Shown here piece by piece: positions 7,968 through 47,670 of a DNA stretch of 48,652 nt. Made by a program: the position numbers and the translations under genes. The notes beneath the pieces are model-generated. The model was given only the letters and a program-made list of their open reading frames with translations. It did no database searches and was not told the origin of the DNA. The DNA is taken from positions 1 to 48,652 of the IMG/VR virus record IMGVR_UViG_3300036832_000539. The stretch is one strand, 5' to 3'. The first letter of the stretch is position 1; every line of letters begins with the position of its first letter. This DNA is from a virus.

Positions 7968-8490
7968 GTTGACGGGAGCCTTGGCTTGTTACGATGACGA
8001 ATTGACCGGCCTTGTCCTGCAGGACATGCCGATCGCCCAACGCCGCACCGGCGGCGGAAGAGAAATTCTCGAAGCAGAGCTTGCACGGATCATCCGGTCC
8101 CTGTGTCCTGACGAAGCGGTCGTCGAGCGCGTCCACAGCCTCCCAAAGCAGGGTGTCGTCTCAACGTTTAATTTTGGTGTCGGGTATGGCATCGTCAAAG
8201 GCATCCTCGCGGCGTTGTCGGTCCCAACAACGTTTATGACCCCACAAGAATGGCGCCGGATTGCGCGCGTTGACGGTACGCCAGGCGACAAAGGGGCGTC
8301 CCGGATACGCGCGTCGCAGCTTTATCCTGCTCAGGCATCAATGTTCTTTCGCTCGAAGGACCACGGCCGGGCGGATGCCGCGCTTCTTGCATATGCGTAT
8401 ATGCAGTCTCGCAACAACGGTGCGCATTTTATACAAAATATCTTGCCCCCCTGTGAACCGGCCTGTGCCAAGCCTAGGATACGCGCCTAA
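7939..8490 (+). CDS. ruvC: RuvC-like Holliday junction resolvase
   Basis: MTRVLAVDPGLTGALA (catalytic Asp), VVERVHSL (Glu) and HGRADAALLAYA (Asp). The ATG at 7939 follows GGAGTAGGAG. Confidence 0.75.
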   Translation: MTRVLAVDPGLTGALACYDDELTGLVLQDMPIAQRRTGGGREILEAELARIIRSLCPDEAVVERVHSLPKQGVVSTFNFGVGYGIVKGILAALSVPTTFMTPQEWRRIARVDGTPGDKGASRIRASQLYPAQASMFFRSKDHGRADAALLAYAYMQSRNNGAHFIQNILPPCEPACAKPRIRA

Positions 8491-8541
8491 ACTTGCGAGA
8501 AAATTAACCCCCAAAATAATCTTGACGTCGCCCGCCGTAGG

Positions 8542-9996
8542 GTGTGTCATTCGGCGTCGCATCAAACACTCACCAACGGCCCGCCGATGCCCGTCGCCGC
8601 CCTCCCCCGCGGCGTCGACCAGCAAGTCGATGCCCTTCGTCCTTACCAGCAGCACGGTGTCCGCTGGTTGCGAAGCGCAACCTCGATTAACCCGCACCGC
8701 TTTCTGGTGTTTGAGGCGGGCCTGGGCAAGACCCGGGTCGCCATCCAGGCGGCCTATGAAATCAACGCGCAGAACGTCCTCGTGATCTGCCCGGCTGTCG
8801 CCCGTATCGTCTGGACTGCCGAACTCGATAAGTGGTGGCCCAAGTGGCCTGCCGGCCGGCCGCCAGCCTTGTTGGTGGTCGAGTCGGGACATGCGAACCG
8901 CTACAGGTTTCGCGATGTCCCGCGTCCTGGGTGGACGGTGATCGGTTATCCCAACCTGTCGATGAAAGACAACGCCTGGATCAAGGTTCTCGCCGCGAAA
9001 CAGTGGGACCTCCTGATCATCGACGAGTGCCAATATCTAAAGGGCAGCTCGAACCGCACCCATGCCGTGTACGGCAAAGGCTTTGCTGCCCTACCCGGTT
9101 CCCTCGCTGGCGCGGCGGACAGAGTATGGCTCCTGTCGGGCACCCCCGCGCCAAATCACGCGGGTGAGCTGTTCCCGCACATCAACGCGCTCTTTAAGGA
9201 GATCCTGCCGCCCGGGGTGCGGCACATTTGGGAGTTCGAGGATCGTTTCTGCAACGTCAGCAACACGGTCTTTGGCCGGCGGATCAGCGGCTCAAATGTG
9301 AACCGCCTGGCGGATCTGCGCACGCGTCTGGGACCCTACGTCTTGCGACGCCGACAGGACGACGTCCTGAAAGAGCTGCCGCCGATGGCGTTCTACGACA
9401 CACCGATCGACGCCAAGATCACCCCCATCAACAACCGTGTCGTCGACGCCAAGGACGACGACCACCTGATCCGCGCCTTGCGCGCCGAGGAAACCAACCT
9501 CGCGACTGACCGGCGCGAACTCGGTGAGAGCAAAGTACCCGGGGCCGTGGCATTCTGCGAGGAATTGCTGACTGAGATGCGGATTGGCCAGCAGAAATTA
9601 GTATGCTTTGCTTATCACAAAGCGGTGATCGCCGGTCTTGCCGCTGGCCTCCGCGATTGGGACCCGCAAGTCTTAGACGGCAGTACGTCACAACGCGAGC
9701 GCGCGGCAGCGATCTATGATTTCACCCACAACCAACACAACGCCAATGTGTTTATCGGTCAGATCCAAGCTGCGGGAACCGCGATCACACTGACATCTGC
9801 GTCGGTTTGTGTCTTTGTTGAAGTGTCCTGGGTGCCCGGCGAGAACTATCAAGCAGCGATGCGAGTGCATCGCCTCGGTCAGAGACGGGCGTGCGCAGCA
9901 TATTTCCTCTATGTCCCCGGTTCGCTCGATCAGCGGATCATGGGCGCCTACCGGCGCAAAGCCGGGCAGCTACTACAACTTTGGGACCGGCGTTGA
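8542..9996 (+). CDS. SNF2-family (SF2) DNA helicase/translocase
   Basis: LRPYQQHGVRWL, DExH box LIIDECQYLKG, LLSGTPAPNH, and C-terminal helicase motifs GQIQAAGTAITLT and AMRVHRLGQRR. The start is uncertain (GTG 8542 or ATG 8587). Confidence 0.85.
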   Translation: MCHSASHQTLTNGPPMPVAALPRGVDQQVDALRPYQQHGVRWLRSATSINPHRFLVFEAGLGKTRVAIQAAYEINAQNVLVICPAVARIVWTAELDKWWPKWPAGRPPALLVVESGHANRYRFRDVPRPGWTVIGYPNLSMKDNAWIKVLAAKQWDLLIIDECQYLKGSSNRTHAVYGKGFAALPGSLAGAADRVWLLSGTPAPNHAGELFPHINALFKEILPPGVRHIWEFEDRFCNVSNTVFGRRISGSNVNRLADLRTRLGPYVLRRRQDDVLKELPPMAFYDTPIDAKITPINNRVVDAKDDDHLIRALRAEETNLATDRRELGESKVPGAVAFCEELLTEMRIGQQKLVCFAYHKAVIAGLAAGLRDWDPQVLDGSTSQRERAAAIYDFTHNQHNANVFIGQIQAAGTAITLTSASVCVFVEVSWVPGENYQAAMRVHRLGQRRACAAYFLYVPGSLDQRIMGAYRRKAGQLLQLWDRR

Positions 9997-10023
9997 TGCC
10001 GGCCGGAACAGGGAGACTGAACC

Positions 10024-10512
10024 TTGCCAGATGACCATGACTATCATGTCGTTTCGCTCAACCTTCACGGTCGCACGATCGACGATCTCAAGGAGAATTT
10101 CTGCCGTGTCGGCGAGCAGTTTTTTGGCCTGAGTTTTGGCCCGGGTGGTAGTTCGTCGAACGGGCACGATGTCAACCCGACACCGCCGGCAGCGGCGGAG
10201 ACGCCGCCTGGGACGCGGCGCCGGCGGTCCCGCGAGGCGTCAGCCGCGGCCGATCCGCCGGCCCAGGTCGATGACGACAAGCCGCCGGTGCGTGATGAAG
10301 TCATCGACAAGCTGAAGCAGTGTTACAGCTTCTCCCCTGTCGGGGCCGAGAAGGTGATCGCCCTGCAAGTCAAGATGGGCGTCAAGCGCTTTAACGACGT
10401 GCCCGAAGGCAAGCTGGACGAACTGGCTGACCAAGCCAACCGGCTTTGGAACGAGCTGCACGGTGCGCCGCCGCCACCGCCGGCCCCCGCGGCGGATACC
10501 GGACCATTCTGA
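10024..10512 (+). CDS. Hypothetical protein, 162 aa, with a Pro/Ala-rich linker
   Basis: Consistent GC3 bias. TTG start. The stop abuts the next ATG. Confidence 0.5.
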   Translation: MPDDHDYHVVSLNLHGRTIDDLKENFCRVGEQFFGLSFGPGGSSSNGHDVNPTPPAAAETPPGTRRRRSREASAAADPPAQVDDDKPPVRDEVIDKLKQCYSFSPVGAEKVIALQVKMGVKRFNDVPEGKLDELADQANRLWNELHGAPPPPPAPAADTGPF

Positions 10513-11754
10513 ATGGTCGCGCACTCTGCCCTTGGTGCCTCGTCCGCTGCGCGTTGGATGACCTGCCCCGGCTCGTTTCGCGTCTCACAGAGCGTGAATG
10601 ACCGAGGTCGGTCATCCCTCTGGGCAGCGACCGGCAGCGTCGCCCACGGTGTCGCCGAGCGCGTGCTGCTCAATGGCGGCCCCGTCGACCGGGACCTGGG
10701 ACAGACCACCAACTACGACGGCCACGACATCACCATCGACCAAGAGATGATCGAGGCCGTCGAGATCTATCTAAACGCTGTCGACCCGATCATCGCCGAG
10801 GCGGATTACTGGAAAGCCGAACAGCGGGTCGAGTTGACCAGTTACTGGTATCCCAACAACCCGCCCGTCGATCTTTTTGGCACCTGTGATCTGCTTGCCT
10901 ACAATCGCAAGCGCCGCCGGCTGACGATCGCCGACTATAAGAATGGCGCCGGCGTCTACGTCGAGCATACCGACAACAAGCAGATGTTTTATTATGCCGC
11001 CGGCGCCCTGGCTCTTCTCAGGTGGGCCTTTCCCAACGAGGACCCCCTCGACGTCGAGATGATCATCGTCCAGCCGCGCGTCCCGGGCCACGAGCCTGTG
11101 CGCTCCTACGTCCTGCCGGTGATCGACATCCTGATCTGGGTCCGGGCTGAGCTGATGCCGGCGGTGGCTGCGACGCAGGCCACCGACGCCCCCCTGGTCC
11201 TGGGATCAGGCGATCACAATCATTGCCGCTGGTGCCCCGGCCGCGTGATCTGCCCGGCGATGCTGGCAACACGTGCCCAGCACGTGTTTGACCCGGTGAC
11301 CGAGGGCGACGGCCCCGAAGTTCACGACGCGACTGACGGTGAACTCGCGACCTTCCTCGATGACGCCGAACGCCTCGATGTGTGGATCGCCGCGGTGCGC
11401 GAGGAAGCCCTGCAGCGCATGCAGAACGACGGCGCCCGCGTCCCAGGTTGGGGCCTTACCCCGACACGTCCCAGGCGCGTCTGGCGCGACGAGGACGAAC
11501 TTGAGGAAGCCGTCAAGAAGCTGGTCCGCACCGGCGTCCCCGGCCCCTTTGGCGAGTTCTCGCCCTACAGCCCGGCCCAGATGGAGAAACACGTATCCGC
11601 CAAGACATGGCGCGAGCTTCAAGCCCTGGTCGATGTGCGCTCGTCAGGGGTCAAAATAGCGCGCACTAATCCACTACCGGAACCTTTTGACCCTACGAAA
11701 ACGAAGGAACCGGCATCATGGTCGACATTGCTCTCACGCCTACAGGTATTCTGA
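10513..11754 (+). CDS. PD-(D/E)XK nuclease, DUF2800/Cas4-like family
   Basis: N-terminal SALGASSAARWMTCPGS, nuclease core GTCDLLAY...IADYKNG, and C-terminal Cys cluster HCRWCPGRVICPA. It sits in the canonical position next to a DUF2815-like gene and PolA. Confidence 0.75.
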   Translation: MVAHSALGASSAARWMTCPGSFRVSQSVNDRGRSSLWAATGSVAHGVAERVLLNGGPVDRDLGQTTNYDGHDITIDQEMIEAVEIYLNAVDPIIAEADYWKAEQRVELTSYWYPNNPPVDLFGTCDLLAYNRKRRRLTIADYKNGAGVYVEHTDNKQMFYYAAGALALLRWAFPNEDPLDVEMIIVQPRVPGHEPVRSYVLPVIDILIWVRAELMPAVAATQATDAPLVLGSGDHNHCRWCPGRVICPAMLATRAQHVFDPVTEGDGPEVHDATDGELATFLDDAERLDVWIAAVREEALQRMQNDGARVPGWGLTPTRPRRVWRDEDELEEAVKKLVRTGVPGPFGEFSPYSPAQMEKHVSAKTWRELQALVDVRSSGVKIARTNPLPEPFDPTKTKEPASWSTLLSRLQVF

Positions 11755-12296
11755 GCTATCCGCATCTCTTCAAGGCGCGTGCCGTAAACGAGCAAAGCGA
11801 GCCGCGGTTTAGCTGCAACCTCATCTTTGATAAGACCGCGCAGAACACACCGGAGTTTCAGCAACTCCGTAAACTCGCGATGGCCGCGGCGGTCACCAAG
11901 TTTGGCCAAGCCAAGCTGGATGACCCCAAGTTTATCGCGCGGCTGCGCCGGCCGTTCCGGCCCTGTGCCGATCGTCCCGGCGTCATGGGCTACGACGTCC
12001 CGGACGGCGTTTTTATTAACCCCTGGTCGCAGTTGCCGCCCAAGGTTGTCGGTCCCGACGCCCAGGAGATCACGGTGCCCTCCGACGTCTTCCCCGGGCA
12101 AAAGGCACGCGTTCAGGTGAACGCGTTCGCCTACGACAACGCCGGCAACATCGGCGTGAGTTTTGGGCTGCAAGCGGTCCAGATCACCCGCCGCAACATG
12201 CCGCGGCTGGATGGCCGCACCATCCTCCCCTTTGACCGCTCGACGGAGGAAGACGATGACGTCTTTGGTGGAACCGGCGACGACATGCCGTTCTAA
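11718..12296 (+). CDS. DUF2815-type single-stranded-DNA-binding-like protein
   Basis: N-terminal ILSYPHLFKARAV and an acidic SSB-like C-terminal tip DDDVFGGTGDDMPF. Gene order with the DUF2800 nuclease and PolA supports the call. Confidence 0.65.
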   Translation: MVDIALTPTGILSYPHLFKARAVNEQSEPRFSCNLIFDKTAQNTPEFQQLRKLAMAAAVTKFGQAKLDDPKFIARLRRPFRPCADRPGVMGYDVPDGVFINPWSQLPPKVVGPDAQEITVPSDVFPGQKARVQVNAFAYDNAGNIGVSFGLQAVQITRRNMPRLDGRTILPFDRSTEEDDDVFGGTGDDMPF

Positions 12297-12462
12297 GCTA
12301 AAGGATGCTTTCGTTTTGCTCGATCGCGCCATCCGTGACTACCGTCACGCGACGGCCGATCAGCGACGCCAGCAGAGTACCGCGCTCTACGCCCCTGAAG
12401 AGCGCTGGGACATGGTCATCAAGGCGCGGCACGTCCTCGAAGAGATAGAGCCGCTTTTATGA
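12256..12462 (+). CDS. Hypothetical small protein (start uncertain)
   Basis: The ORF overlaps the SSB-like gene's end. The ATG at 12256 or the TTG at 12316 are possible starts. Its stop overlaps the next ATG (ATGA). Confidence 0.35.
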   Translation: MTSLVEPATTCRSKLKDAFVLLDRAIRDYRHATADQRRQQSTALYAPEERWDMVIKARHVLEEIEPLL

Positions 12463-12731
12463 CCAGCGCACTGTCCGCCAGCTTTTGCCTCAAGCTGGCC
12501 AAGGCTGGCGGACGCCTTACCCTGCGTGAGGCGATCATCCTGCACCGCGTCCTGACCACCCAGGAAGTCCTGACCGCGACCGATCTGGCCAGGACGCTGA
12601 TCGCCCCGCAGCCGAGCATTTCGCGCTGCATCGCGCGGCTCGAATTTCTCGGCTTTATCCGGCGCACGCGCGGCCACGCGAACACGCGTGCCCTGTTGGC
12701 TACCGTCAAAGGTCGGGAGTTGCTGATGTGA
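12459..12731 (+). CDS. MarR-like winged-helix transcriptional regulator, 90 aa
   Basis: LTLREAIILHRVL...LTATDLARTLIAPQPSISRCIARLEFLGFIRR matches the MarR HTH-wing pattern. Confidence 0.6.
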   Translation: MTSALSASFCLKLAKAGGRLTLREAIILHRVLTTQEVLTATDLARTLIAPQPSISRCIARLEFLGFIRRTRGHANTRALLATVKGRELLM

Positions 12732-13144
12732 TCGAAGAGAGCGATCTGAACCGGGCGAAAGCCCTGCTTGATAAAGTGGGGCGCGCTCATGGAAGGGAAG
12801 TCCACAGTCGCTACTACGAAGACAATCCGTTCGCTGTTAGAGCGGTGGTGAAAGCCTTCGCCGCCATCCGCGCCGAGGCCAAGGCCGAGCAGCTCGCAGC
12901 GGATGTGGCGGCGGTGCGGGACTTTGATGGTGATGGTATGGCGCACGAAACTGCTGCCGACTTCCTCGAACAGACGGGAGGCACCGTCGAGAAGGTAACA
13001 GCCCCGACCCCGCCAGCGGAGGATTGGGAAGAAGCACAACGGCGTGCGGATGCTGGAGTGCCGATGCCGGTAGCTCCGACCCCGCCAGCGAGCGATCCGC
13101 CAAGAGCCACACAGGCTGATGCCGATGATCGACGCGATCTTTAA
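12728..13144 (+). CDS. Hypothetical protein, 138 aa
   Basis: The GTG start overlaps the upstream stop. GC3 bias is present. Confidence 0.45.
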   Translation: MIEESDLNRAKALLDKVGRAHGREVHSRYYEDNPFAVRAVVKAFAAIRAEAKAEQLAADVAAVRDFDGDGMAHETAADFLEQTGGTVEKVTAPTPPAEDWEEAQRRADAGVPMPVAPTPPASDPPRATQADADDRRDL

Positions 13145-13946
13145 CCCTCTCAACCAGTGGGCCGTGCCGATGAAACCGCTTTACTGGACACTCAACGAGG
13201 ACGAACAGAAGATCTACCGCGAACTCCTGAAAAAGCGCCCTGACGGCTGGGAGAATTACCCCGAATTTGAGGAAGATCTGCGACAGGCGATTGATAAATG
13301 GAAGTACCAAGCCATGTGGCGCGCGCGCGAGCGACTAGAAGCTGAGCGGCGAAAGGAAGAGATCCGGCGGAACAATTTTTATTATCGCCATAAACGTGAA
13401 GAGACAGAAGCAGACCGGCAAAAAGCCGCTGAATTTCAAAAACACGTTAAGCAGCTAGCCGTGCGGCGAGCCGAGCTACACGCCGTCTTGAAAGACGAGT
13501 TCACCGCGCATGGCGGCCGTACCAATTGGATTTTGCACGAGAAACAGACGCGCACTTATAAATCGATTGGCGATCAGCTTGGTATAACCGGCTGGCGCGT
13601 CCGGGAGATCTGTCACAAGGAAGCGCGTATTCGCGAATGGCGCCGGCTGCACCCTCACCCACCACCGCCGCAGCCTAAGCTGGAAGAGATGATCCCCGAG
13701 GAAATTCTACAGTATCCGGCCGAGGACCTTGAGCTGTCGGTTCGCCCGGCCAACTGTCTGAAAAACGAGAACATCAGAACGATTGGCGAGCTGCTTAAAT
13801 ACTCGCCAGCCATGCTGTTGCGTGTGCCCAATTTCGGCAAAGTCTCATTGCGAGAGATCCAGCAGCTTCTCGGGGATCTGGGCCTTTCACTGCCACCGAA
13901 CTGGCATCCAAGAGATGGAGATGATTGGCCACCGTCTGATTATTGA
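13119..13946 (+). CDS. Fusion protein: coiled-coil N-terminus, sigma70 region-4-like HTH, Pro linker, RNA polymerase alpha C-terminal domain (alpha-CTD)-like domain
   Basis: TYKSIGDQLGITGWRVREICHKEARIREW resembles sigma region 4.2. DLELSVRPANCLKNENIRTIGELLKYSPAMLLRVPNFGKVSLREIQQLLGDLGLSL closely resembles E. coli RpoA alpha-CTD ([56 protein letters not shown], recalled from memory). An alternative start lies at 13170. Confidence 0.75.
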   Translation: MPMIDAIFNPLNQWAVPMKPLYWTLNEDEQKIYRELLKKRPDGWENYPEFEEDLRQAIDKWKYQAMWRARERLEAERRKEEIRRNNFYYRHKREETEADRQKAAEFQKHVKQLAVRRAELHAVLKDEFTAHGGRTNWILHEKQTRTYKSIGDQLGITGWRVREICHKEARIREWRRLHPHPPPPQPKLEEMIPEEILQYPAEDLELSVRPANCLKNENIRTIGELLKYSPAMLLRVPNFGKVSLREIQQLLGDLGLSLPPNWHPRDGDDWPPSDY

Positions 13947-15918
13947 TATCGAGACGGCCTCGCTCGCCGAACTGCCGGCGGTGGGGGCCGATTGCTACGC
14001 CGAGGACATGACGACACGCGTCCTGTGCCTGGCCTACCAATATGACGACGACCCGATCCGCGGCTGGGCGCCGGCCCAACCGCCAATTCGGTGGGATGCT
14101 CCCTTTGACTACATCGCCCCGGACGTGACCGTGGTGGCGCACAACGCGGCGTTCGAGATCGCCGTCTGGACCCACATTCTTTGCAAGAAGCTCCACTGGC
14201 CCCCGTGCCCACCGCTGCATCAGTGGTCGTGCACGATGGCCCGGGCGCAGTACCACGGGCTGCCGGCCGGCCTTGAGGACGTCGCCCTCGCGCTGCACTT
14301 TCCGCCGCACCTTCAGAAGGACGCGGCTGGGCGCCGCATCATGATGCAGCTCGCCAAGCCGCGGGACGTCAACCCGCTGCGCTGGTGGCATGAGGATGAC
14401 CCCCTCAAGTTTCAGGCCCTACGGGAGTATTGCAAGCGGGACGTGCTGGTCGAAGCAAAGCTAGACCACGTCCTGCCCGAGCTGCCGCCGCGCGAGGCCG
14501 AACTGTGGCGTATCAATCAGGCGATGAACACCGAGGGAGTGTGCCTCGATCAGGACCTGATCCGCCGGCTGCGGACGATCGTGCAGAGCGAGATGAACCG
14601 CCTCAACGGCGAACTGTTCACAATCGCCAAAGGGGAAATCACATCAGTCAACCAAGTGACCGCCATAAGAAACTTTCTCCTGAAAGAAAGTGGCCTCGAT
14701 CTTTCTGTCCTAGACAAGAACACCGTGGCCCACGTCCTGGCGACAGACCCGTTCCTTGACCGCCGGAGCGAGCGGATCTTGGAGATCCGGGCCGAAGCGG
14801 CGAAGACTTCGACCGCCAAGCTCAATGCGATGCTGCGGTCGGTCAGCGACGACGGCCAGGCGCGTGGCCTCTTCCGCTACTACGGGGCCAACCGCACGGG
14901 GCGCTACTCGTCCCAGCGCATCCAGTTGCAGAACATGGCCCGGCCGTCGATCGGCGACCCCAACCGGGTGATAGGCGTCATTAAGGCTCCTGGGACGCCG
15001 CTGGATGGCCTAACCGCTCTCTGGGGCGATACCATGCTGGGGATCGTCGCAAGCTGTCTGCGCGGCTGCATCGTGGCCCGGGAGGGCTATCTCCTGCCGG
15101 TCGCCGATCTGTCGCAGATCGAGGCGCGCGTCATCGCTTGGCTTGCCGGCCAGGCGGATATCCTTGACGTCTTTGCCGCCGGCCGGGACGTCTATACGTG
15201 GACCGCCAACAATGTCGGCTCGTCGAACCGCCAACTCGGCAAGGTCATGGTCCTGGCGCTGGGGTTTGGCATGGGCGCCGGCAAGTTCCGCGACACCGCG
15301 GCGAAGTACGACATCCTGATGGCCCCTGATACGGCCCAGATGCTGGTCAACGATTGGCGCGCAGCTAACGCCGATATCGTGCAGTTCTGGTGGGATCTGG
15401 AAGCTGCCGCGCTACGTGTCGCAGCGAAGGCTGACGGCTATCAGGAACAGGCCGGGCGTATCTGGCTGGAGAAGCGCCGGCAGGCGATGGTTATGCGGCT
15501 GCCGTCAGGCCGCGAGCTGTTTTACCAACGTGTCGCCAGCGAGTGGGTCGAGATCAAGACCAAGATGCTCGACGCTGCCGGCGAGCCGATCATCAAGAAA
15601 AAGCTCGCCGTGACCTATGAGGGGGTCAACCAGTACACGCGGCGGTGGGAGCGGCTGCGCGCCTGGGCCGGCCGCCTGGCCGAAAACGCTACCCAGGCGG
15701 TGGCCCGGGACGTCCTGACCGATGCTCTCCGACAGTTGAACAAGATGGGGCTGCGGGTGATCGGCACCGTCCACGACGAGCTTATCGCCGAGGTCCCGGC
15801 CCCGGACGCCGATCGCTGGCTGGTGTGCATGCTCGACATTATGCGACAATCGCCCCGGTGGGCAAACAGCCTACCCGTAGGGGCCGAGGGAAAGGTCTTA
15901 GCGCGCTATGGCAAGTGA
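13915..15918 (+). CDS. Family A DNA polymerase with 3'-5' exonuclease domain
   Basis: Exo motifs IIDIETAS and VVAHNAAFEIAVW. Pol motif A ADLSQIEARVIAWLAG, motif B RQLGKVMVLALGFGMG, motif C GTVHDELIAEV. Start set at MEMIGHRL, because the upstream part of the ORF overlaps the preceding gene. Confidence 0.9.
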   Translation: MEMIGHRLIIDIETASLAELPAVGADCYAEDMTTRVLCLAYQYDDDPIRGWAPAQPPIRWDAPFDYIAPDVTVVAHNAAFEIAVWTHILCKKLHWPPCPPLHQWSCTMARAQYHGLPAGLEDVALALHFPPHLQKDAAGRRIMMQLAKPRDVNPLRWWHEDDPLKFQALREYCKRDVLVEAKLDHVLPELPPREAELWRINQAMNTEGVCLDQDLIRRLRTIVQSEMNRLNGELFTIAKGEITSVNQVTAIRNFLLKESGLDLSVLDKNTVAHVLATDPFLDRRSERILEIRAEAAKTSTAKLNAMLRSVSDDGQARGLFRYYGANRTGRYSSQRIQLQNMARPSIGDPNRVIGVIKAPGTPLDGLTALWGDTMLGIVASCLRGCIVAREGYLLPVADLSQIEARVIAWLAGQADILDVFAAGRDVYTWTANNVGSSNRQLGKVMVLALGFGMGAGKFRDTAAKYDILMAPDTAQMLVNDWRAANADIVQFWWDLEAAALRVAAKADGYQEQAGRIWLEKRRQAMVMRLPSGRELFYQRVASEWVEIKTKMLDAAGEPIIKKKLAVTYEGVNQYTRRWERLRAWAGRLAENATQAVARDVLTDALRQLNKMGLRVIGTVHDELIAEVPAPDADRWLVCMLDIMRQSPRWANSLPVGAEGKVLARYGK

Positions 15919-16141
15919 CCAACCCGCCACGAATGGCACGATCCCCGGTATGGTGTCGCGGCTTGGCCAATCGCTGATAACCGCCCTTCCTGCCCAGTTC
16001 CTAATGCTCTGTCTGATAAACGCGGTGTTCATTTTCGCGGTCCTGTATTTCGTGGACGATCAGCTTGATCAGCGGACCCATCTCGTCGGTAAGCTGGTCG
16101 ACCGCTGCATGGATCTTGCCGTGAAAAAGGGAGAACCCTGA
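15908..16141 (+). CDS. Small membrane protein, 77 aa
   Basis: Hydrophobic helix LITALPAQFLMLCLINAVFIFAVLYFV. Its start overlaps the end of the pol gene. Confidence 0.55.
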   Translation: MASDQPATNGTIPGMVSRLGQSLITALPAQFLMLCLINAVFIFAVLYFVDDQLDQRTHLVGKLVDRCMDLAVKKGEP

Positions 16142-16458
16142 TGGGTGAAGCCAAGCGACGCAGCCGCGCGCAGCAGGATTGGGAAGCATCGGGCCGGCGG
16201 CTGGGCGACGGCCCGGTCGAAGAGGAACACCACGCCAAGATGGTCGCCACCGTGCAAGCGCTCGACGAGCTGTACAATGGGCGGGTTGGTGGCCCGGGAC
16301 GCAAATTCGGGTTTGTGTTGATGGTGTTCCCGTTCGACGGTTTTGATGGGCGCTGCAACTACATGAGCAACGGCGCCGATCGCGAGGATATCGTGACCCT
16401 CATGAAGGAAATGATCGCCCGGTTCGAGGGTCAAGCAGAGGTTAAGGGGACCGCCTGA
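16141..16458 (+). CDS. Hypothetical protein, 105 aa
   Basis: TGATG overlap with the upstream gene. GC3 bias is present. Confidence 0.5.
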   Translation: MGEAKRRSRAQQDWEASGRRLGDGPVEEEHHAKMVATVQALDELYNGRVGGPGRKFGFVLMVFPFDGFDGRCNYMSNGADREDIVTLMKEMIARFEGQAEVKGTA

Positions 16459-16647
16459 ATGACCGGCCAAACGTTCTGCTGCCCGATCTGTGGGATCGTC
16501 AGCCACAACCCCCATGATGCCGCGCATCGGTACTGCGGACGGTGCCACGTTTTTGTCGATGACGAGTTGGCGCGACGGGATTTAGTAAACCAGCAAAAGC
16601 GTCCCGATATGTCCACTTACAGCCCGACACCACGCCAGACACGCTAA
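16459..16647 (+). CDS. Zinc-ribbon protein, 62 aa
   Basis: CPICG ... CGRCH. The ATG abuts the upstream stop. Confidence 0.55.
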   Translation: MTGQTFCCPICGIVSHNPHDAAHRYCGRCHVFVDDELARRDLVNQQKRPDMSTYSPTPRQTR

Positions 16648-16999
16648 CGGATAAAGATAGTAGGCTCTTGTAATGATTGGTGTAGATGGTGTCGTTTCAC
16701 GTCCTCAGGACCCCCACCCATCACTCCCCTTGATGGGGGAAGGGCATGGGGCGCACAGGGTTTTCCATCAGCTTGAAAACATTACACAATCCGGTGTCGT
16801 TTTAAAACCGACAAAACCGGAAGTATGGCGCACGTCGGGTGTCTTTCTGTGTCCTGACAAATCGTCGACACTAGGCGTGTCCTGATGAAAAAGACGAGAG
16901 GCCATGATGAGTGTCCTTTTTCGTCCCTACACACACCCGTTGAAATCATTGAGCTATTTTGCGCCGCACTTTATCCACAAGACACACAGGAGGTCTAAG

Positions 17000-17176
17000 A
17001 TGGCTAAGAAGTTCGTCGACGTGCCGATCCCCAAAAAGATTGACAACCAACGTGTCACGCGGGGCCTGGTCGATCAACCGCCAAAGCCGCGAGATGTCGG
17101 CTCGGGACGTGTCAGGCACGACGTCGCGGAAGCCCGCAGCAAGCCGCGCGGCACTGGGACGAGGTCACCGCTATGA
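17000..17176 (+). CDS. Hypothetical basic protein, 58 aa
   Basis: The ATG at 17000 follows AGGAGG (16989-16994). The ORF-track start at 16904 lacks an RBS. Confidence 0.5.
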   Translation: MAKKFVDVPIPKKIDNQRVTRGLVDQPPKPRDVGSGRVRHDVAEARSKPRGTGTRSPL

Positions 17177-17463
17177 TCAGCCGCTCTCGCCTCGATGCCG
17201 CAGTGGCCGCTTTCAAGACTGTTTCGGTTGCCGTGCGGGACGACGTCCTAGAGACAGCGCTTCTCGCCGCGCTCAGCGCCGCCGACACGACGGTCGAGAC
17301 GCTGCCGATGCCGGTGGCGCCTTATCGTTATAACAGCCTGGGCGAACCGCTACTTGAAGAGCTTAGCGCCAAACCGGAGGATTGCGGGAGCAGCCCGCTT
17401 GACGGCGCGGGCAGCCGGGGGGATGAAATCATCGACGGCGCCCATGAGGCTACTACTGGGTAA
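17173..17463 (+). CDS. Hypothetical protein, 96 aa; its 3' end overlaps the convergent giant gene
   Basis: ATGA overlap with the upstream ORF. GC3 bias is present. The last 114 nt overlap the 3' end of the minus-strand gene 17350..24483. Confidence 0.4.
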   Translation: MISRSRLDAAVAAFKTVSVAVRDDVLETALLAALSAADTTVETLPMPVAPYRYNSLGEPLLEELSAKPEDCGSSPLDGAGSRGDEIIDGAHEATTG

Positions 17464-20400
17464 CGCTGACCCCTCCGCTGTTCGCTGCTTGTCATCGGGC
17501 GGCATGAACTCTTTCAGCCGGTCGTCGTCGGGCGGCATGTACTCTTTCATGCGCTCCTTCTCGGCCTCGTCGGGCGTCATGTTGGTCTTCTCGCCCTTGG
17601 GGCCGGCCATCATCGTCGCAACGGTGTCAGCCGCCGACTGCGACAGGAAGGTCTGGCCCGCCCCGGACCACATCCACGACTTGATGGGACCGGCCGGCGC
17701 CAGCGCCATGCCCAGCGCGGCGACCGGCATGCCGAAAAGCTGGTACATGCCGCGCCAGGCCCGATAGCGCGCGGTGTTGGTGTTAGGGCTGCCGCTGGTG
17801 AGCGGGGCCAGGATGTCGGTGATCGCCTGGACGTATTGGTTCATCTGCGCGCCCAGGAACAGGCTGCTGATCTCGTGTTCGTACTTGATCGCGTTGATCG
17901 CGTTGACCAGGGGATCGGCCACACCGCCAACGCCGGTGCGCTGAAAGGCGAGGCCAAAAATCTTTTCCATATAGACCCCGTCCTTGCGCCATTGCGCCGC
18001 GCGCTTGTGGTCGAAAATCTCCTGGCGCACGATCGCCATCGGGACTTGCCCGATCATCATCATGCCGATTGCGGTGGCCGCAAAAGTCGCCCATTTAGCG
18101 GCGCCGACAGCCATGCCCGCGCCCTTGCCCAAGCGGCCTTGCTCGTAGCCGATGGTCTTCCCCAGGCGATCAAACGCCGGGTTGAGGACCGCGCGCTGAA
18201 ACATGAAGTTGTAGCTCTGCAACCCGTAGAGGAACCGGCCCCACGGTGTATTGGCCTTGAACGCCTTCTCGGCCGCGGTGTTTTCCAGTACCACCTTTTC
18301 GACAAAGCGGGTCGTGGCCTCGCCCCAACGCTGCCCCATCGGTGTCTGCAGGATCTCGTTGATGGTCGGCAGCCGGCCGTTGAGGCTCTGATACCATTTG
18401 GAAAATTCATCATGCTCGGCGTTGGGGATACCCATCTCGCGCATCTCGGCGTGCGGGTCGAAGAGCGCGCCGCGCCGGCCCGCGAGAATATCACGGGCGT
18501 ACATCCCCAGCGCGACATGGGCCGCCCAGCGCGCGCCCACCTTGTTGCCGTTTGTTGTCTGGGTGAGGCCGGTTCGCCGGTAGAAGTTCGCCATCATGTG
18601 GCCCGGCGACCACGAAAACGCCTCGGTGCGCCCTGTCAGCATCGCCTCCTGCAGCCGGGTCGACGTCGTCCCCAGGACGCGGGAGATGTCGGCCAGGTGC
18701 TGCACTCGCTCGGACCCTTTGATCAGCCCGATCTGCCGCATGATGTCCTGCATCGCGATCGAGAAGCCGCCGGCTGCCGCCCGCGCGCTGCCGCTCTGGG
18801 CAAACGCCACCATCGGCTCGCTGATCGACGACCACGCGGCGTGCGACATCAGTGCCATCGTTCCCAGCGCCCGCATCCAGACGGCGGCCTTGTGACCGAC
18901 ATCGATCTCGTTTGAGCGCAGCATGCCGAGAGCGCTCTGGATCGTGCCGCGGATCTGCTCGCGATCCTCTTGCAGGACGCCGGCCTCGTGAAGGTCGCTC
19001 ATCGCCTTTTCGAGGACTTCGCCCTGGTGGCCAAAGAGGTCGCCAAAAGCGAGCTTGCGGCCCATCTGGTGAAAATAGTAGGGCAGCAGCTCGCTGGGAC
19101 GCGTGACGATGTAGCCGGCGTTAGCGAGGATATCCCGGGCCTCGGCCGACAGGACGCGCTGCCGCAGCGGGTCGGAAGTTGGCATCGTCCCCGACTTGTT
19201 GCCGGGACGCGCCCACGGGACGTCGGTCCTTGAGTGAACCCAATCGCTGCTGCGCTGCTGCGCCCAGGCTTCGCGGATCGGGTCGGTGACCCGGCTGAGA
19301 AGGTCTTGCTGTTGCCGGTCGAGCGCGGCGAGCTTGCCGGGGTCCGTCTCCGTGCGCATCGCCTCTTGGACGCGCGCCAGTTCCTCCATGTCGGCTTGAA
19401 CGCCTTTATCAATGCCGGCGCGCGGAAGGGCGCCATAGGCTTCGTGGATAAAGGTATTGTCCTTGATTTGCTTCGAGTTGAAGTCGGCGCGCATCGCATC
19501 GGCGATGACGTCCTTGGCCTTAACCCCGTCGCGGATGATCGCCTGGTCGTCGTAGACGATCGGGATATAGTTCTCATCGCGCGGCATCCCGACATTGATC
19601 CCGGCGCGCTCGATCCGATACCACATATCTTTAAGCACGGCGTCGATCCCGGCGGCCGCCCGCTGGATATTGGCCGGGACGACAGGTGTGTTGCCCTGCG
19701 CGTCCCGGCCGCGCAGCGCGTCGAAGAGCATCTTCTCGTTGTCGAGGTTCAGCCGGTTGGTCGGCATCCCGTTGTCGTTGAGGATCTTGTCGATCTTGTT
19801 GACTTCCGGGTTGGTGATCCGGTTGGCCGCGCGCTCGAAGGGGGTCACCTGTAGCCGGCCCTCGCCGTAGCGATAGCCGAGTTTGTCGAGAAGGTTGCTG
19901 ATGATCGCGGCGGCACGGTGGTTGCCCAGCGCCTCGTAGCGCTCGCGGTAGACGTCGAGCTGCCCCATATTTGTATAAATATGGGGGGTGATGATGTCCT
20001 TGACGTTGATCGCCCCGTGCTGGACGCCCTTCCAGCTAAAGGTGGGGACGCCCTGCGCGCCGGCGCGCTCGGCCATTTCCTGCAGTGTTCGTTGCCGCCA
20101 GTTGCGGGTCACGTTGACCGCCCGGCGCAACCCGTTGGTCAACTGGGGATTGGACTGCGGGTTGTTGGTGTACTGCCAGTAGACCGGGTCGAGGATGTCG
20201 TAATCGCCGGGACGTGCGGCCTTGTTGCGCGACCCCAGGATATTGTCCCGCTGCAGGATCGCGTGCATGTCGTTCATCGCGTTAAAGATCGCGTCCCGGT
20301 CGGCGGCTTGCGGGTAGTGGTCGGCAAACCGCTGGGTGGCGCCGGCCAGATACTCTTGGTCCCCCTTGGTGATGAACTCGTTGCTGCCGCCCTGTTGCTC

Positions 20401-23400
20401 GGCAAGGTGCGCGACATACGCCTCGCCCGCCCGGGCCAGCATTTCCTCGGGTGATGCCCAGTAGTTCCGGGGCGACAATTGCTGGGACCCGGTCACCAGA
20501 CCTGTCGGCTGGATCGGGGTCTTTGGCTTGCCACCGGCGATGATCCGCTGGGCCTCGGCTGCAGCGGCGCGACGCGTGTTGGCGTTGGGGTGCGTTTGCG
20601 CCGTCATGTTGAGATCGGCGATGCGCGCGGCTTCCGCGGCGCGATCGTGGAAGATCGCCCGCATGACATTGGCGACCGCCTCTTCCAGCGTCCCGGGATG
20701 CACGTTAGTCAAGGCCCCGGTGTGCGCGATTTGCGACGTCAGCGCTTTACGGACAGCCGGATTGCGGTTTACGAACCGCAGCAGATAGTGATCGAGCGCG
20801 TGCGTCCACTCATGGGCAAAGCTGTTCGATCGATCCGGCATGTGGATGCTGATCTCTCCCTTGGCGTTGATCGACATCATGCCGAGATAGGCTTTCTTGG
20901 GGTTGGGCTGCCACGGCTCGAACCGCAGATTGATCTCACCGTGAAGCGACATGCCCTTGAGGCTCGCGCCCAGCAGATGCGCCATCATCTGCATGTTGCG
21001 GTAGCCGTCGAGCATGCTGTCGATCGCCTTCTGCGGCTGCATCTTGGGATCGACGTGGACCTTGAAGCCAAAAGTCTTCTCGATGTGGTTGCCCAGGATC
21101 TGCAGCCGCCGGGCGGGGGTAAATAGGGCCGCGACATCAGGGTCGTAGCCCGCGTCCCGGTACGCCTGACGGAACAGCGAGGGCCGGTCGGTGATGTCGG
21201 GCGCCTCCCTTCCCGGTATGCGCCTTGTTGTCGGGACGCGGTAGAGGCCGCCCAACCGTGGCTGGCCAGGACGTAGCTGCGCCTGATATGCGTCTGCCGC
21301 GCGCTCGCCCGCCGGTGTCATGCCGCGCTCGGCCTGGTAGGCCACGTCCCGCTGTTGCTGCAGCCCGCCCATGTCGCGGATGATCTGCGCCCGCTCGGTC
21401 GGATCGCTGGTCGCCTCGTAGCGGTCCCGCAGATCGGTGATCTTGTTGGTCAGGCTCTCGACTGTTTCGGCGCCCGGCCGCGGCGGGATCGCTAGGCCCT
21501 CATCGCCGGTACGCGTGTCCTGGGGCGCCAACGGCAACTCGCCCTGCTCGCGGGCCTCGGTCATGGTGATCGGCTCACCCGACGTTGCCTGCGCCGCTTG
21601 CGGCGCCTCCTTGCCCGGCTCCGCGTAGAACGGCCGGCTCTCGCTCGTCGTGGTGTCGACCGGCACCGGCTCGGTCGCGCCCGTGGCCGTTGCCGCCGCA
21701 TCACGCGTTTCGAGCGTCAAATCCACCGGCCGCGTTTCGTGGCTGATCGGCTGGCCCTGCGCGATGGCGACGACTTGTTGGGTCTGGGGGTCGCGCACGG
21801 CGACGATCGGCGCCTCGCCAGGACGCGACGTCAGATAGGTGTTCGCCCCGACGTCCCCGTACTTCGAGAGGACCGCGTAGCGGTCGGCGTCCAGCTCGAC
21901 CGTGTGGCCATCGGCGGTGTGCCCGTGAACGACCTCGGTGCCATCGGGGGTCGTTGTCGTGTCGGTCCAGGCGATCCCGTGCCGGGCCTCGGTGTTGGCC
22001 GACGTGACAATCGCGTCGATCGGCTTGACGTCCTTCAGCTCGACATTCTCGCGCGCGGTGGCCGTGCCAAAATGCTGGTCGACCTCGGGGTTGGTGCCCT
22101 CGCGCACGAGGACGCCGGCGTGGCCCACCCATGTCGTGCCGGTGCTGTCGGTCGCCCGCACCAGGCGCCCCTCGGGGGGCGGGGTGGTGATCCCGGTCGC
22201 GACCTTGCTCTCGTCTGCCGGCGGAGCCGGGGGGCGTGTCGCGGACCAGAGGTCTTGCAGATGCTTGCTGATTGCCTCCTGGGTCGACTTCCAGGCTGCC
22301 GCGAGGGCCTTGGGTCCCGGCTGGCCCATGCTTTTGGCGACGCCGACAGCACCCGGGATCGTGCCGGCGACAAAGGCCGGGATCATTTCCTCGGGCTGGC
22401 CCAGCCCCTCGGTGACCGACTTCTCGGGCTGCGTCGTCGCCTTGTCGACGATGTTGTTGACGAGATGCTGCAACTGGCCGACGCCGGTCATCAGCGTGCC
22501 GTCCTCGGCCATGTGGACGATCGCCGCGACAGCCGCGCGCTTCTCGATCGGGCCTAGCGCCGACAGCCAGCGCGTCGCCGGGACGGCAAACAGCCCGGAC
22601 GCGGCAATCGCCTTGGCACCGGCGTTGACCGCTGCGTCCTCCGGGGACGCGCCGGCCTTGATCTGCTCCTGATAGCTCTGCGCGTAGGTCTGGGACGCAG
22701 CAATTCCCATTGCTGCCGGCACCCCGCCGGCCAGCAGCGAGCCGACATAGACCGGCAGCGAGCCGATCGCCTTGCCGATATTGGTCGACATGGCGTTCTC
22801 GTAGCCCGCTGGTGGGGTGATCTTCTGACCCTGCGTGTTGATCCACTCGCCGGGAACAGCCACCGTCTCGCCCACCGCAGAGCCACCCTTGGCCAACAAC
22901 CGGCCACCCTGGTAGATCACCGATTGCTCGGGCGGCGCCATCTGCGAAAGGTCTTGCTCGTACTGCGCCCGGAACGCCTGGCGTTGCTCGGGCGTCATGT
23001 CTTGGTAACCGTAGAGATCGGTCGGACCCTGCCCTGGCTGGCCCACGGTCGCGGCGGGGAACCGCTCGCCCTTGTCGATCCGGTCCATGATCGCAAGCTG
23101 GTCGCGCGCCTGTTGCTGCGCGTTGTAGGGCGCGGCTTCGAGCGCGTGGCCGGCGAGCGCGGTCCCGCCGGTGATCAAGTGCCCTGGCCCCGCCGCGACC
23201 TGGCCGACAGTCGTGACCGCGCCTTGGCCGGCGCCCGCTATCGCTGCAGTCAGCGGCTCGGTGGGCATCTGCGGCACGCCCTGCGGCGACAGGATCGCCT
23301 CGGGCGGGACATCCGGGATGATGATCGGCTCTTGCGGCTCGGCCGGTGGCGTCTGTGGCGCCGGCACCGCTGCCTGTTGCGTCGCTGGTGCTGACAATTG

Positions 23401-46179: not shown

Positions 46180-46216
46180 ATGGACAAAACCAACGGCAAC
46201 TGATAAAGATATATTC

Positions 46217-46240
46217 GGTTTCGTATGTATTTACGAAGCC
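46217..46240. promoter_or_regulatory. Imperfect 24-bp palindrome in the AT-rich divergent intergenic region (candidate operator)
   Basis: GGTTTCGTA-TGTATT-TACGAAGCC: 8 of 9 arm positions pair. It lies between the late-arm start (46179) and the cobS-like start (46273). Confidence 0.35.
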
Positions 46241-46272
46241 TAATACAAACCAACTAAATAAAGGATCTACTA

Positions 46273-47670
46273 ATGACTAGGTTGACTAACGAACAGCGCA
46301 CGGCCCTACGCCGCGCAATCAACGCGCATCCCGACAAGGAAAAAATTGCACCGAACGTGCACGTTTCTTCGCTGAATAAGGACGCGTTACTTGAACTTGC
46401 GAGCAAGCTGAACCTGAACATCATTTGGGATGGCAGCGTTGCTCCAAAATTGGAAAGCGAGCCAATGACGCCACCGGACAACGTCCCGGCCGTTACGGGC
46501 GATGCGATCGATCAGGCAATCGAAGATGAGGTAGGCCGCATTCGTGGCCTACTGGCCACCGGCGGTTTCGCGCAACTTGACAGCGTCCTAAAAGACCTTG
46601 TGCGGGACGCGCGCAAGCCGGCCGAAATCATCTATCAGCCGGTGGCGCAGCAAGTCGGCGCCGCATCCCCGCTACCCATCGCCAAGCCGGTGAAGCAAGC
46701 GACATGGGGTGTCACCTTTGGCCTACGGGGAGCGCTCGCGTCCCGCAACGTTTCCATTTGGGATGCGCAGGACGCGCCGGCGATCGATCCCGACTATGTA
46801 TGGCCAGCGTCGACAGGCGCCGTATTGTCACAAATGGCGCGCAAGCGTCACGTTTGGCTATATGGCCCTAAGGGGACAGGCAAAACGACGTTTGCCGAAC
46901 AGATTGCCGCGCGCCTTCACCGGCCGTTATCGGTGATTAGTTGCGACGGTGGCATAGAAGCCATCGAGCTGATTGGCCAGAACCTCCCCAAAGATGGCGG
47001 TTTCGTTTGGCAGAATGGCCAGTTGCTGCAAGCGATCCAACGTCCCGGCTGCGTCATCCTAATAGATGAGCCTAGCGTTGCGCGGCCTAGCGCGCTGTTC
47101 GTCTTTCAACACTTGCTGCAGTTTCGCGAGATTTACATTCGCGAAACGGGACAGCGCGTGCAATGCGCGCCGGGAGTGTTGTTTATCGCGGCGGACAACA
47201 CAAACGGGACAGGTGGCGGGAACAAGCACGGCTATACCGACACCAATCGCTTGAACGCGGCGACCTTAGACCGGTTTAGCATCATGGTCCCGATTGACTA
47301 TCTGTCCCCGACCAAGGAACAGCGCGTCCTAGTATCCCGCACGGGATGCACGCCAGCGTTGGCGGATATCCTTGTGAAGGCGGCCGGGTTAACCCGGGCG
47401 ATTGCCGCTAGCGGCAACATCGTCGCGCCCATCGGCTTGCGCCAAATGTTTGGTTGGGCAGAAACGCTAACAGACGGGATCGATCCTAAGGACGCGCTAG
47501 AGTTCGCGATCATTAGCAAGGCGCCCGAACAAGACCGGGAGACGCTACGGCAACAGTGCCTACTCGCGGTCGACCGTGCGGCGATTGCTGCAGCAATCAG
47601 CAACACGCCGGCGCCGGCGCCCGTAGTCCCCGGGACGTTCGCTCCCGTCATCGATGACGAAGGGAATTGA
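46273..47670 (+). CDS. cobS: CobS/MoxR-like AAA+ ATPase, 465 aa
   Basis: Walker A LYGPKGTGKTT, Walker B VILIDEPS, and AADNTNG...TLDRF (sensor/Arg finger region). The ATG lies 7 nt after AAGGA. The N-terminal LNKDALLELASKLNL segment resembles a SAP/Rho-N-like helix pair. Confidence 0.8.
   Translation: MTRLTNEQRTALRRAINAHPDKEKIAPNVHVSSLNKDALLELASKLNLNIIWDGSVAPKLESEPMTPPDNVPAVTGDAIDQAIEDEVGRIRGLLATGGFAQLDSVLKDLVRDARKPAEIIYQPVAQQVGAASPLPIAKPVKQATWGVTFGLRGALASRNVSIWDAQDAPAIDPDYVWPASTGAVLSQMARKRHVWLYGPKGTGKTTFAEQIAARLHRPLSVISCDGGIEAIELIGQNLPKDGGFVWQNGQLLQAIQRPGCVILIDEPSVARPSALFVFQHLLQFREIYIRETGQRVQCAPGVLFIAADNTNGTGGGNKHGYTDTNRLNAATLDRFSIMVPIDYLSPTKEQRVLVSRTGCTPALADILVKAAGLTRAIAASGNIVAPIGLRQMFGWAETLTDGIDPKDALEFAIISKAPEQDRETLRQQCLLAVDRAAIAAAISNTPAPAPVVPGTFAPVIDDEGN

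Follow-up and report, generated by a model that had tools for sequence, protein, structure and literature searches.

Why would a tailed phage encode the carboxy-terminal domain of the alpha subunit of bacterial RNA polymerase (alpha-CTD) on a protein of its own, directly before its family A DNA polymerase gene (PolA)? The question is raised by one gene of the IMG/VR virus record IMGVR_UViG_3300036832_000539, positions 1 to 48,652, a stretch of 48,652 nucleotides that we call the window. The gene lies at 13119-13946 on the plus strand, where we confirmed an open reading frame (ORF) whose product is 275 amino acids (aa) plus a stop. The alpha-CTD is the main point at which RNA polymerase (RNAP) docks onto upstream promoter DNA and many activators, and a first-pass annotation made from the letters alone had proposed that the phage protein joins such a domain to a helix-turn-helix (HTH) resembling sigma factor region 4.2. 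Our analysis indicates that this gene is one example that exposes a common, unexplored phage strategy, together with a natural module swap that makes its function approachable by experiment.

A phage protein with an RNA polymerase alpha-CTD

The C-terminal domain (residues 194-258, nt 13698..13892) is a bona fide RNAP alpha-CTD and a member of Pfam RNA_pol_A_CTD (PF03118). The first-pass annotation had noted the likeness and had proposed a profile search and a predicted structure superimposed on the RpoA alpha-CTD as checks, and both of these recovered the domain. Residues 195-251 match PF03118 at 69.1 bits (expectation value [E] 2.6e-19, model positions 9-65 of 67), compared to a gathering score of 23.8 bits. 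In a phmmer search of the PDB, the protein matched 50+ RpoA chains, the best being the Caulobacter crescentus alpha-CTD 9zum_A (1.4e-16) and 7ye1_A, followed by Escherichia coli 2jzb and 1coo (~1e-15) and 1lb2; its alpha-CTD is 52-58% identical to those of Caulobacter and E. coli. An AlphaFold2 (AF2) model made from a hand-trimmed alignment had a mean predicted local distance difference test (pLDDT) score of 87.8, reaching ~93-97 over residues 190-259, and was used instead of a single-sequence AlphaFold model that was poor for the alpha-CTD (pLDDT 30-40). Foldseek aligned the AF2 domain with E. coli 1lb2_E and 8y5t_A2 over 65 columns at 52% identity, with a template modeling (TM) score of 0.94 and a root-mean-square deviation of 0.7-0.8 A, and the E. 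coli structure 3N97 was also present among the matches. As modeled, the domain is compact and helical, contains two helix-hairpin-helix motifs and can be superposed on solved alpha-CTDs.

Residues were mapped to E. coli numbering from the phmmer alignment with PDB chains. E. coli D259, E261, R265, N268, C269, N294, G296, K297 and S299 correspond to D203, E205, R209, N212, C213, N238, G240, K241 and S243 of the window protein, and K298 is replaced by V242. The matches claimed earlier for R265, N268 and C269 are thus present in the alignment, and the GK-S loop is recovered in part: G296, K297 and S299 are kept, but with Val in place of K298 the loop reads G-K-V-S. K298 is among the strongest contacts to the upstream promoter (UP) element. 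Six of the seven DNA contacts of the "265 determinant" (R265, N268, C269, N294, G296, K298 and S299) are retained, and the "287 determinant" that contacts CAP has diverged (T285S, E286P, V287A and E288M, so that it reads S-P-A-M). In the E. coli enzyme, the D259/E261 pair of alpha touches R603 of sigma70, in region 4. A crystal structure of the alpha-CTD from C. crescentus with AT-rich DNA (9zum) identified Arg266, Asn269, Asn295 and Lys299 as key contacts (PMC13004042). Three of these four are kept in the window protein.

The remainder of the protein is unlike RpoA. Pfam searches returned no alpha N-terminal domain (PF01000 or PF01193) even at E <= 10, and the first 190 residues match only a phage HTH family. 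Because it has no alpha N-terminal domain, the window protein is not an RpoA and cannot serve as an RNAP core subunit. Translation could start at ATG 13119 or at ATG 13125; the latter gives a 273-aa form equal to P0001, an identical database protein which, like the orthologues described below, begins at the second Met (MIDAIFNP or MLSAIFNP). The N-terminal segment (residues 1-47, 13119..13259) is modeled with low-to-medium confidence, and its opening MIDAIFNPLNQ is common to the window protein and the orthologues P0028 and P0029. AF2 predicts that residues 48-130 (13260..13508) form a single helix of 83 residues, 47% of them charged, with only a moderate heptad pattern. This helix could be a coiled coil, possibly for dimerization, or a single-alpha-helix spacer, and the family conserves its final stretch of ~40 residues (RR.KLHAALQHEF).

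The HTH (residues 134-177, 13518..13649) is predicted to consist of three helices at 134-142, 147-154 and 158-177. It has a net charge of +6 and holds the family core AYGGRN.WI.H...TRT..SIGDQIG....RV..I; the string beginning TYKSIGDQ that had been placed at residues 143-175 occupies residues 146-174. The earlier assignment to sigma region 4.2 survives for the family, and for the three-helix model, but not for the protein scored singly: in the Sigma70_r4 (PF04545) profile search that had been proposed, it reached 14.7 bits, below the gathering score of 24.1 bits. We retain the assignment because the family profile and collinear relatives back it. When the N-terminal family profile was compared to the PDB, 37 of the 38 matches were sigma-factor chains aligned over region 4.2 in one register (best E 0.019). 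Five of seven family members match Sigma70_r4 individually (best E 1.7e-4), and relatives of the same architecture exceed its threshold (P0007 with 30.0 bits and L025 with 33.7 bits). The idea that the HTH is a -35-type DNA reader was not borne out. The sigma70 residues that read the -35 element, R584, E585, R586, R588 and Q589, align with G158, W159, R160, R162 and E163, so that only the equivalents of R586 and R588 (two of five) are kept. Because most of these residues are not conserved, we describe the HTH as sigma-4.2-type, a label that does not imply -35 reading, and its DNA specificity probably differs from that of sigma70. No Pfam match to Sigma70_r2 or Sigma70_r3 was found in the window protein, and because regions 2 and 3 are missing we class it by domain content as something other than a sigma factor. 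The Mor family (PF08765) has no match in the window protein at E <= 10 and is matched only by relatives, below its threshold of 24.9 bits (P0007, 21.2 bits; L042, 19.9 bits).

Between the HTH and the alpha-CTD lies a linker (residues 178-193, 13650..13697) containing PHPPPPQP, within which the PPPPQP noted earlier occupies residues 181-186. An internal ATG (Met190, nt 13686) follows GGAAGAG within 13672-13688, right at the start of the alpha-CTD. Initiation there would yield a free alpha-CTD of 86 aa; the Shine-Dalgarno spacing is short, and the site is a candidate by sequence only. The protein ends in a tail predicted to be disordered (residues 259-275, PPNWHPRDGDDWPPSDY, 13893..13943; from sequence alignment and the AF2 model), whose PNW.P aligns with the RpoA tail (VPNWPPEN in Caulobacter).

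Close relatives of the whole protein are rare. Its sole full-length match among 5.8 billion clustered and 1.84 billion representative proteins is the identical P0001. A megablast search with window positions 8000-24000 against 50,697 phage records gave zero matches. When these records were searched with tblastn, the protein matched RpoA alone, and no standalone relative appeared; these matches were annotated rpoA genes in bacterial or large assemblies and unannotated short records. Several of the alpha-CTD matches in phage records (H1-H5) are bacterial or contaminated assemblies carrying host rpoA, such as Salmonella enterica contigs and the 240-kb "Acinetobacter phage MD-2021a", and are not phage genes. 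In PHROGs, the window protein found no family at E < 0.1. The alpha-CTD alone gave three matches of 45-54% identity in bacterial genome contigs, from unrelated metagenome-assembled or draft genomes that do not pinpoint a host.

Exchange and recurrence of the C-terminal module

The relatives of the N-terminal half end differently. A HMMER search with residues 1-192 against the 1.84 billion representatives retrieved six relatives covering residues ~90-180, and a profile search of the protein library added eight more; in phmmer, single relatives (the P0025-P0039 family) score E 8e-10 to 8e-6 over residues 88-181. None of these proteins has an alpha-CTD, and all terminate in R[PV]xDMGGPRDVW[LM]x[FY]..DPRxDN. 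This near-invariant peptide closes 14 HTH proteins of phage replication modules whose bodies have otherwise diverged (L009:8001-8621 encodes one example). It is much more conserved than the rest of the proteins that carry it and is also found behind other HTH types. Neither the window protein nor any of the six frames of the window contains R[PV]xDMGGPRDVW[LM].

The protein P0028 connects the two forms by both sequence and position. It shares the MxxAIFNP N-terminus with the window protein, and in syntenic 49-kb contigs it occupies the slot SNF2 - DUF2800 - ... - Enc34-type single-stranded DNA-binding protein (SSB) - P0028 - PolA - 2319-aa LPD1 protein, overlapping PolA by 23 nt. Between P0028-type relatives and the window protein, similarity is lost near residue 178, at the start of the Pro-rich linker. 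By homology and position, then, the window protein belongs to the DMGGPRDVW-tail family even though it is without the defining tail, and sequence comparison indicates that its alpha-CTD stands in place of a different conserved C-terminal peptide, a module swap. The tail peptide looks like a docking motif for a conserved partner. It has no counterpart in the PDB or Pfam, and tblastn of P0028 against the 50,697 phage records found nothing.

Three other accounts of these C-termini were considered. The tail motif was rejected as an AT-hook (KGRP), given that its G and P are both variable (SRP, GRV and SRV) and that no PDB sequence matched. A remnant of GPRDVWLTFFPSPD in the window protein's own tail, PRDGDDWPPSD, is unsupported (hidden Markov model E 2.7), the PNW.P there aligning instead with the RpoA tail. 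A recent splice of host rpoA is likewise unsupported, with RpoA identity of merely 52-58% and GC content and third-position GC (GC3) even along the gene. The alpha-CTD gene has the lowest GC content (54.4%), with a GC3 of 62% compared to 73-82% in the large replication genes of the operon; these values are even over its three parts, and base composition this uniform speaks against a very recent splice.

The combination of HTH and alpha-CTD is widespread. Our IMG/VR scan used two narrow alpha-CTD peptide patterns and showed that at least 128 viral contigs encode alpha-CTD proteins; 80 contigs were kept, with ORFs of 59-322 aa, and 66 proteins were scanned against Pfam. All 66 contain an alpha-CTD, and no alpha N-terminal domain family is among the 19 families matched. 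Sigma70_r4 is present in 11 of the 66 (best E 2.6e-12), and the other domains of the set include HTH_17, Mor, Sigma70_r4_2, HTH_3, KorA, RHH and GerE. The neighbors of 15 HTH-alpha-CTD genes are mainly replication and recombination genes (DUF2800, PD-(D/E)XK, DUF6378, UvrD, RecT, RdgC, SSB, SNF2 and AEP primase), with a few terminase genes among them. In L025, for example, a protein with both Sigma70_r4 (33.7 bits) and alpha-CTD (69.5 bits) is encoded between SNF2 and DUF2800, and P0007 (Sigma70_r4, 30 bits; alpha-CTD, 58 bits) lies among RecT, YqaJ, methylase, helicase and NusG genes. The protein of L047, in the order DUF2800 - 183-aa ORF - HTH plus alpha-CTD, shares with the window protein a collinear region spanning the HTH and the alpha-CTD (36% identity over 136 aa) and occupies the same genomic slot. 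A profile built from eight such proteins brought up additional metagenomic HTH plus alpha-CTD proteins as well as a set with double alpha-CTDs, and several dozen proteins with HTH plus alpha-CTD or with double alpha-CTDs occur in the protein libraries. The metagenomic proteins P0040-P0049 (190-270 aa) carry two tandem alphaproteobacterial-type alpha-CTDs and no alpha N-terminal domain, and the bacterial proteins P0002 and P0003 combine tetratricopeptide (TPR) repeats with two alpha-CTDs, which are further uses of the domain outside RpoA. Among UniProt/BFVD entries, proteins of uncultured Caudovirales, Rhodococcus phage Finch and Mycobacterium phage Mithril have been automatically named "RNA polymerase alpha subunit C-terminal domain-containing". 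Given these contigs and BFVD entries, the earlier statement that this is not a standard phage function overstates its uniqueness: the HTH plus alpha-CTD class is broad, automatically annotated and recurrent in replication modules. No functional work on phage-encoded alpha-CTD proteins was found in the literature searched, most subscription journals being outside its coverage. The exchange of modules in this lineage is the new finding; the protein itself would be of a known kind, namely phage HTH regulators whose effector domain derives from RNAP, and it is not unique.

Possible roles of the tethered alpha-CTD

We tentatively favor, at somewhat below an even chance, the reading that the protein is a DNA-binding regulator of the replication module that is anchored by its HTH and supplies an alpha-CTD in trans to phage promoters. 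Its build is modular, with the long charged helix leading into a basic HTH of the sigma-4.2 type and a flexible, Pro-rich linker joining this HTH to the alpha-CTD. The HTH would fix the protein at specific phage DNA sites, where the tethered alpha-CTD could act locally as an in-trans alpha-CTD, binding the adjacent narrow, A/T-rich minor groove, touching promoter-bound sigma region 4, or both. In this way the protein might assist RNAP in reaching particular phage promoters, such as those of replication or late genes, or might keep it away from them. We favor a regulator because the HTH is of a type typical of transcription factors, because alpha-CTDs are joined to sequence-specific readers in many lineages, because the alternative peptide of the orthologues resembles a partner-docking motif and not a DNA reader, and because early operons commonly encode regulators of later genes. 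A broader reading, possible but doubtful, is that phages have repeatedly captured the host alpha-CTD and fused it to HTH readers, so that an extra alpha-CTD is brought to chosen promoters and is interchangeable with the DMGGPRDVW peptide. Under such capture, the fusion would supply missing UP-element or sigma-4 contacts or evict host alpha-CTDs, and the DMGGPRDVW peptide would also be an RNAP-docking module or one that docks onto the same partner.

Several observations weigh against a regulator of phage promoters. The place of the gene in a replication operon, translationally coupled to PolA, suits a role in replication at least equally. With K298 changed to Val and a net charge of -2, the window alpha-CTD may bind DNA weakly. 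Within the window protein, Sigma70_r4 stays sub-threshold (14.7-15.4 bits, E 0.021, residues 143-166). R265, N294 and G296 are invariant among the 66 phage alpha-CTDs and S299 is kept in 65, a conservation of R265/N294/G296/S299 that is partly built into the search patterns. D259 and E261 are acidic in just 55-67% of phage alpha-CTDs and are plain proteobacterial RpoA residues, so that their retention is no proof of a sigma-4 contact. A repeat search over the window found no operator-like repeated motif and no origin-like iterons, and a sigma70 promoter scan of it was near background, with nothing attributable to the window protein. In addition, the tail-motif family has no relative in the genomes of 185,579 species.

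Three alternatives assign the domain a different role or none. A protein that marks the phage origin or organizes DNA for the SNF2, DUF2800, SSB and PolA machinery, with a major-groove HTH, a minor-groove reader of two helix-hairpin-helix motifs, (HhH)2, and no RNAP contact, is unlikely in our estimate, although several genomic observations favor it. The alpha-CTD would then be no more than a handy module for binding DNA. The gene lies just before PolA in a replication module, as first annotated: the PolA start falls in its last 26-32 nt, in another frame, and orthologue loci are arranged alike. The gene and its orthologues are always inside replication modules, overlapping or near PolA, and other HTH-alpha-CTD genes likewise lie among replication and recombination genes. 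In phage alpha-CTDs, conservation is greatest at the residues that contact DNA, and strongly AT-rich islands (1968-2061, 8421-8523 and 46198-46279) are present in this 63% GC genome; we regard these islands as candidate binding sites of the window protein. Position is not decisive, however, as early operons often carry regulators of later genes, and HTHs of the sigma-r4 or Mor type are typical of transcription factors. The tail peptide of the orthologues is partner-binding-like, which suggests a C-terminal effector and not a second DNA reader, and the absence of iterons from the repeat search also speaks against an origin-marking role.

The first-pass annotation had raised the idea of a decoy. 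In such a reading, the phage alpha-CTD would compete with those of the host, occupying UP elements or AT-rich upstream DNA, such as that of rRNA promoters, or titrating activators or other factors that bind alpha-CTDs, and would thereby redirect host transcription during infection. We consider this quite unlikely for the window protein. Its alpha-CTD is genuine and keeps R265, N268, C269, N294, G296 and S299, and in principle the internal ATG at M190 could release the domain free of its tether. The alpha subunit is also a known phage target: T4 Alt and ModA ADP-ribosylate R265 of alpha, and Rac of phiKMV is a phage factor that targets the subunit (PMC7552054). A role as a free decoy would suit the many phage alpha-CTD proteins of just 72-140 aa in which no DNA reader can be recognized. 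In the window protein, by contrast, the tether to a sequence-specific HTH argues for local and not global action, the K298-to-Val change should weaken UP-element binding, and the activator-contacting 287 determinant has diverged. Because the orthologues have no alpha-CTD, host shut-off by mimicry of alpha does not represent the function that the gene has conserved. In every lineage in which the alpha-CTD occurs with an HTH, it is joined to a sequence-specific reader, and we think it more probable that the protein activates or regulates chosen targets on phage DNA than that it serves as a free decoy acting globally. An evolutionary accident, namely a chimera of recent origin whose alpha-CTD is decaying or has no function, is very improbable. 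The protein is effectively a singleton, its one full-length match in two protein libraries being an identical sequence, it has lost K298, and its GC (54%) and GC3 (62%) are lower than those of its neighbors (GC3 73-82%). Against this, the hydrophobic core of the domain is intact, its Pfam score is 69 bits and it is modeled with confidence. Composition is even over the three gene parts, as would not be expected of a fresh splice, and many further phages have the same architecture, with L047 even sharing the slot.

If the favored reading of a promoter-directed regulator is correct, a phage alpha-CTD tethered to its own DNA reader would be a compact device for rewiring promoter recognition that requires neither a new sigma factor nor a phage polymerase. 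Uncultured phages commonly have this design, and databases label such proteins "RNA polymerase alpha subunit". The natural swap of alpha-CTD and DMGGPRDVW, both borne on one HTH scaffold at one position in the genome, offers an experimental handle, and the binding partner of the DMGGPRDVW peptide would strongly hint at the purpose of the alpha-CTD. Should repeated capture prove true, it would represent a widespread mode of phage control over host transcription; if the protein is only origin-binding or architectural, it would be one more use of the (HhH)2 DNA-binding module, of modest import.

Genomic surroundings and known systems

At ~49 kb, the window appears to be the complete genome of a tailed phage. 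A 15-nt tandem repeat (GGCGACGACAGCCAG and variants, 18 copies) is found at both ends, at 1-200 and 48348-48652. Because the same repeat lies at both window ends, the genome is probably circular or terminally redundant, with the assembly broken inside a repeat-coding gene. Genes for an AAA_5/CbbQ-type (MoxR-like) ATPase (46273-47670, plus strand) and a 773-aa DUF5906 protein (2042-4363, minus strand) flank the region joined across the window ends. Just downstream of the DUF5906 gene lies the most AT-rich of the three islands (1968-2061), with up to 92% AT in 24 nt compared to 37% overall, a candidate for an origin, an attachment (att) site or a strong regulatory region. The two smaller islands lie upstream of SNF2 (8421-8523) and in a divergent intergenic region (46198-46279).

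The replication operon, on the plus strand, contains genes for a SNF2 helicase (8542-9996), a DUF2800/PD-(D/E)XK nuclease (10513-11754) and an Enc34-type ssDNA-binding protein (11718-12296), with a 162-aa ORF, within 8542..12296, listed between the SNF2 and DUF2800 genes. In the same operon, a MarR-type winged-helix protein of 90 aa (12459..12731) is followed by a 138-aa ORF to which no function was assigned (12728..13144); we place the latter in the operon because it overlaps the start of the alpha-CTD gene by 26 nt. These two genes lie between the SSB and alpha-CTD genes, an interval in which the orthologous contigs have no called gene. PolA follows at 13915..15918, starting at ATG 13915 or 13921. 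The module is syntenic with contigs L009-L011 and with Microcystis phage Mae-Yong1326-1, which is the closest deposited phage by PolA (41% identity) and has the same module order. In this closest cultured relative, the slot before PolA does not hold the same family, being occupied by an unrelated 76-aa ORF. The minus strand encodes the terminase, a tail-fibre chaperone domain and a protein of 2377 aa that contains an LPD1 "large polyvalent protein" domain. The LPD1 protein gene (17350-24483) contains coding repeats at 23497-23708; its counterpart in related contigs, at the same position, encodes 2319 aa, and that in Mae-Yong1326-1 is annotated as a peptidoglycan transglycosylase.

Compared to the alpha-CTD of RpoA (E. 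coli 1LB2 and 3N97; C. crescentus 9ZUM), the window domain is of the same Pfam family and fold, with even a similar PNW.P tail, whereas K298 is Val and the 287 determinant has diverged. The window protein further differs from RpoA in being without the alpha N-terminal domain, in bearing an HTH joined through a Pro-rich linker, and in being phage-encoded beside PolA. Its HTH resembles sigma-70 region 4.2 and Mu Mor/C in its three helices and in the pattern T..(E/S)IG...G(I/V)(S/T)..R(V/I)RQI, yet unlike sigma-70 the protein has no region 2 or 3 and does not keep most of the -35-reading residues. T4 MotA/AsiA is a phage adaptor that gives host RNAP a new upstream promoter contact, MotA binding both the C-terminus of sigma and the MotA box. 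It is a conceptual analogue of the window protein; the folds are unrelated, the effector in the window protein is a copy of an RNAP domain, and we saw no sign of sigma remodelling. Mor-type activators are described as acting together with the alpha-CTD and sigma region 4 of the host (PMC4287176). The window protein differs from Mor in carrying its own alpha-CTD rather than (only) contacting that of the host. The automatically named phage alpha-CTD proteins (L014-L093 and those of Finch and Mithril) are alike in that the alpha-CTD is phage-encoded, standing alone or fused, joined in a subset to an N-terminal Sigma70_r4 or other HTH, and often found in replication or recombination modules, but the N-terminal half of the window protein is distinct from theirs and is elsewhere paired with another C-terminal module. 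That pairing is found in the DMGGPRDVW-tail proteins (P0025-P0039), which belong to no Pfam family. With these the window protein has in common residues ~90-180, the MxxAIFNP start and the slot before PolA, and it differs from them in exchanging the DMGGPRDVW motif for a linker and an alpha-CTD.

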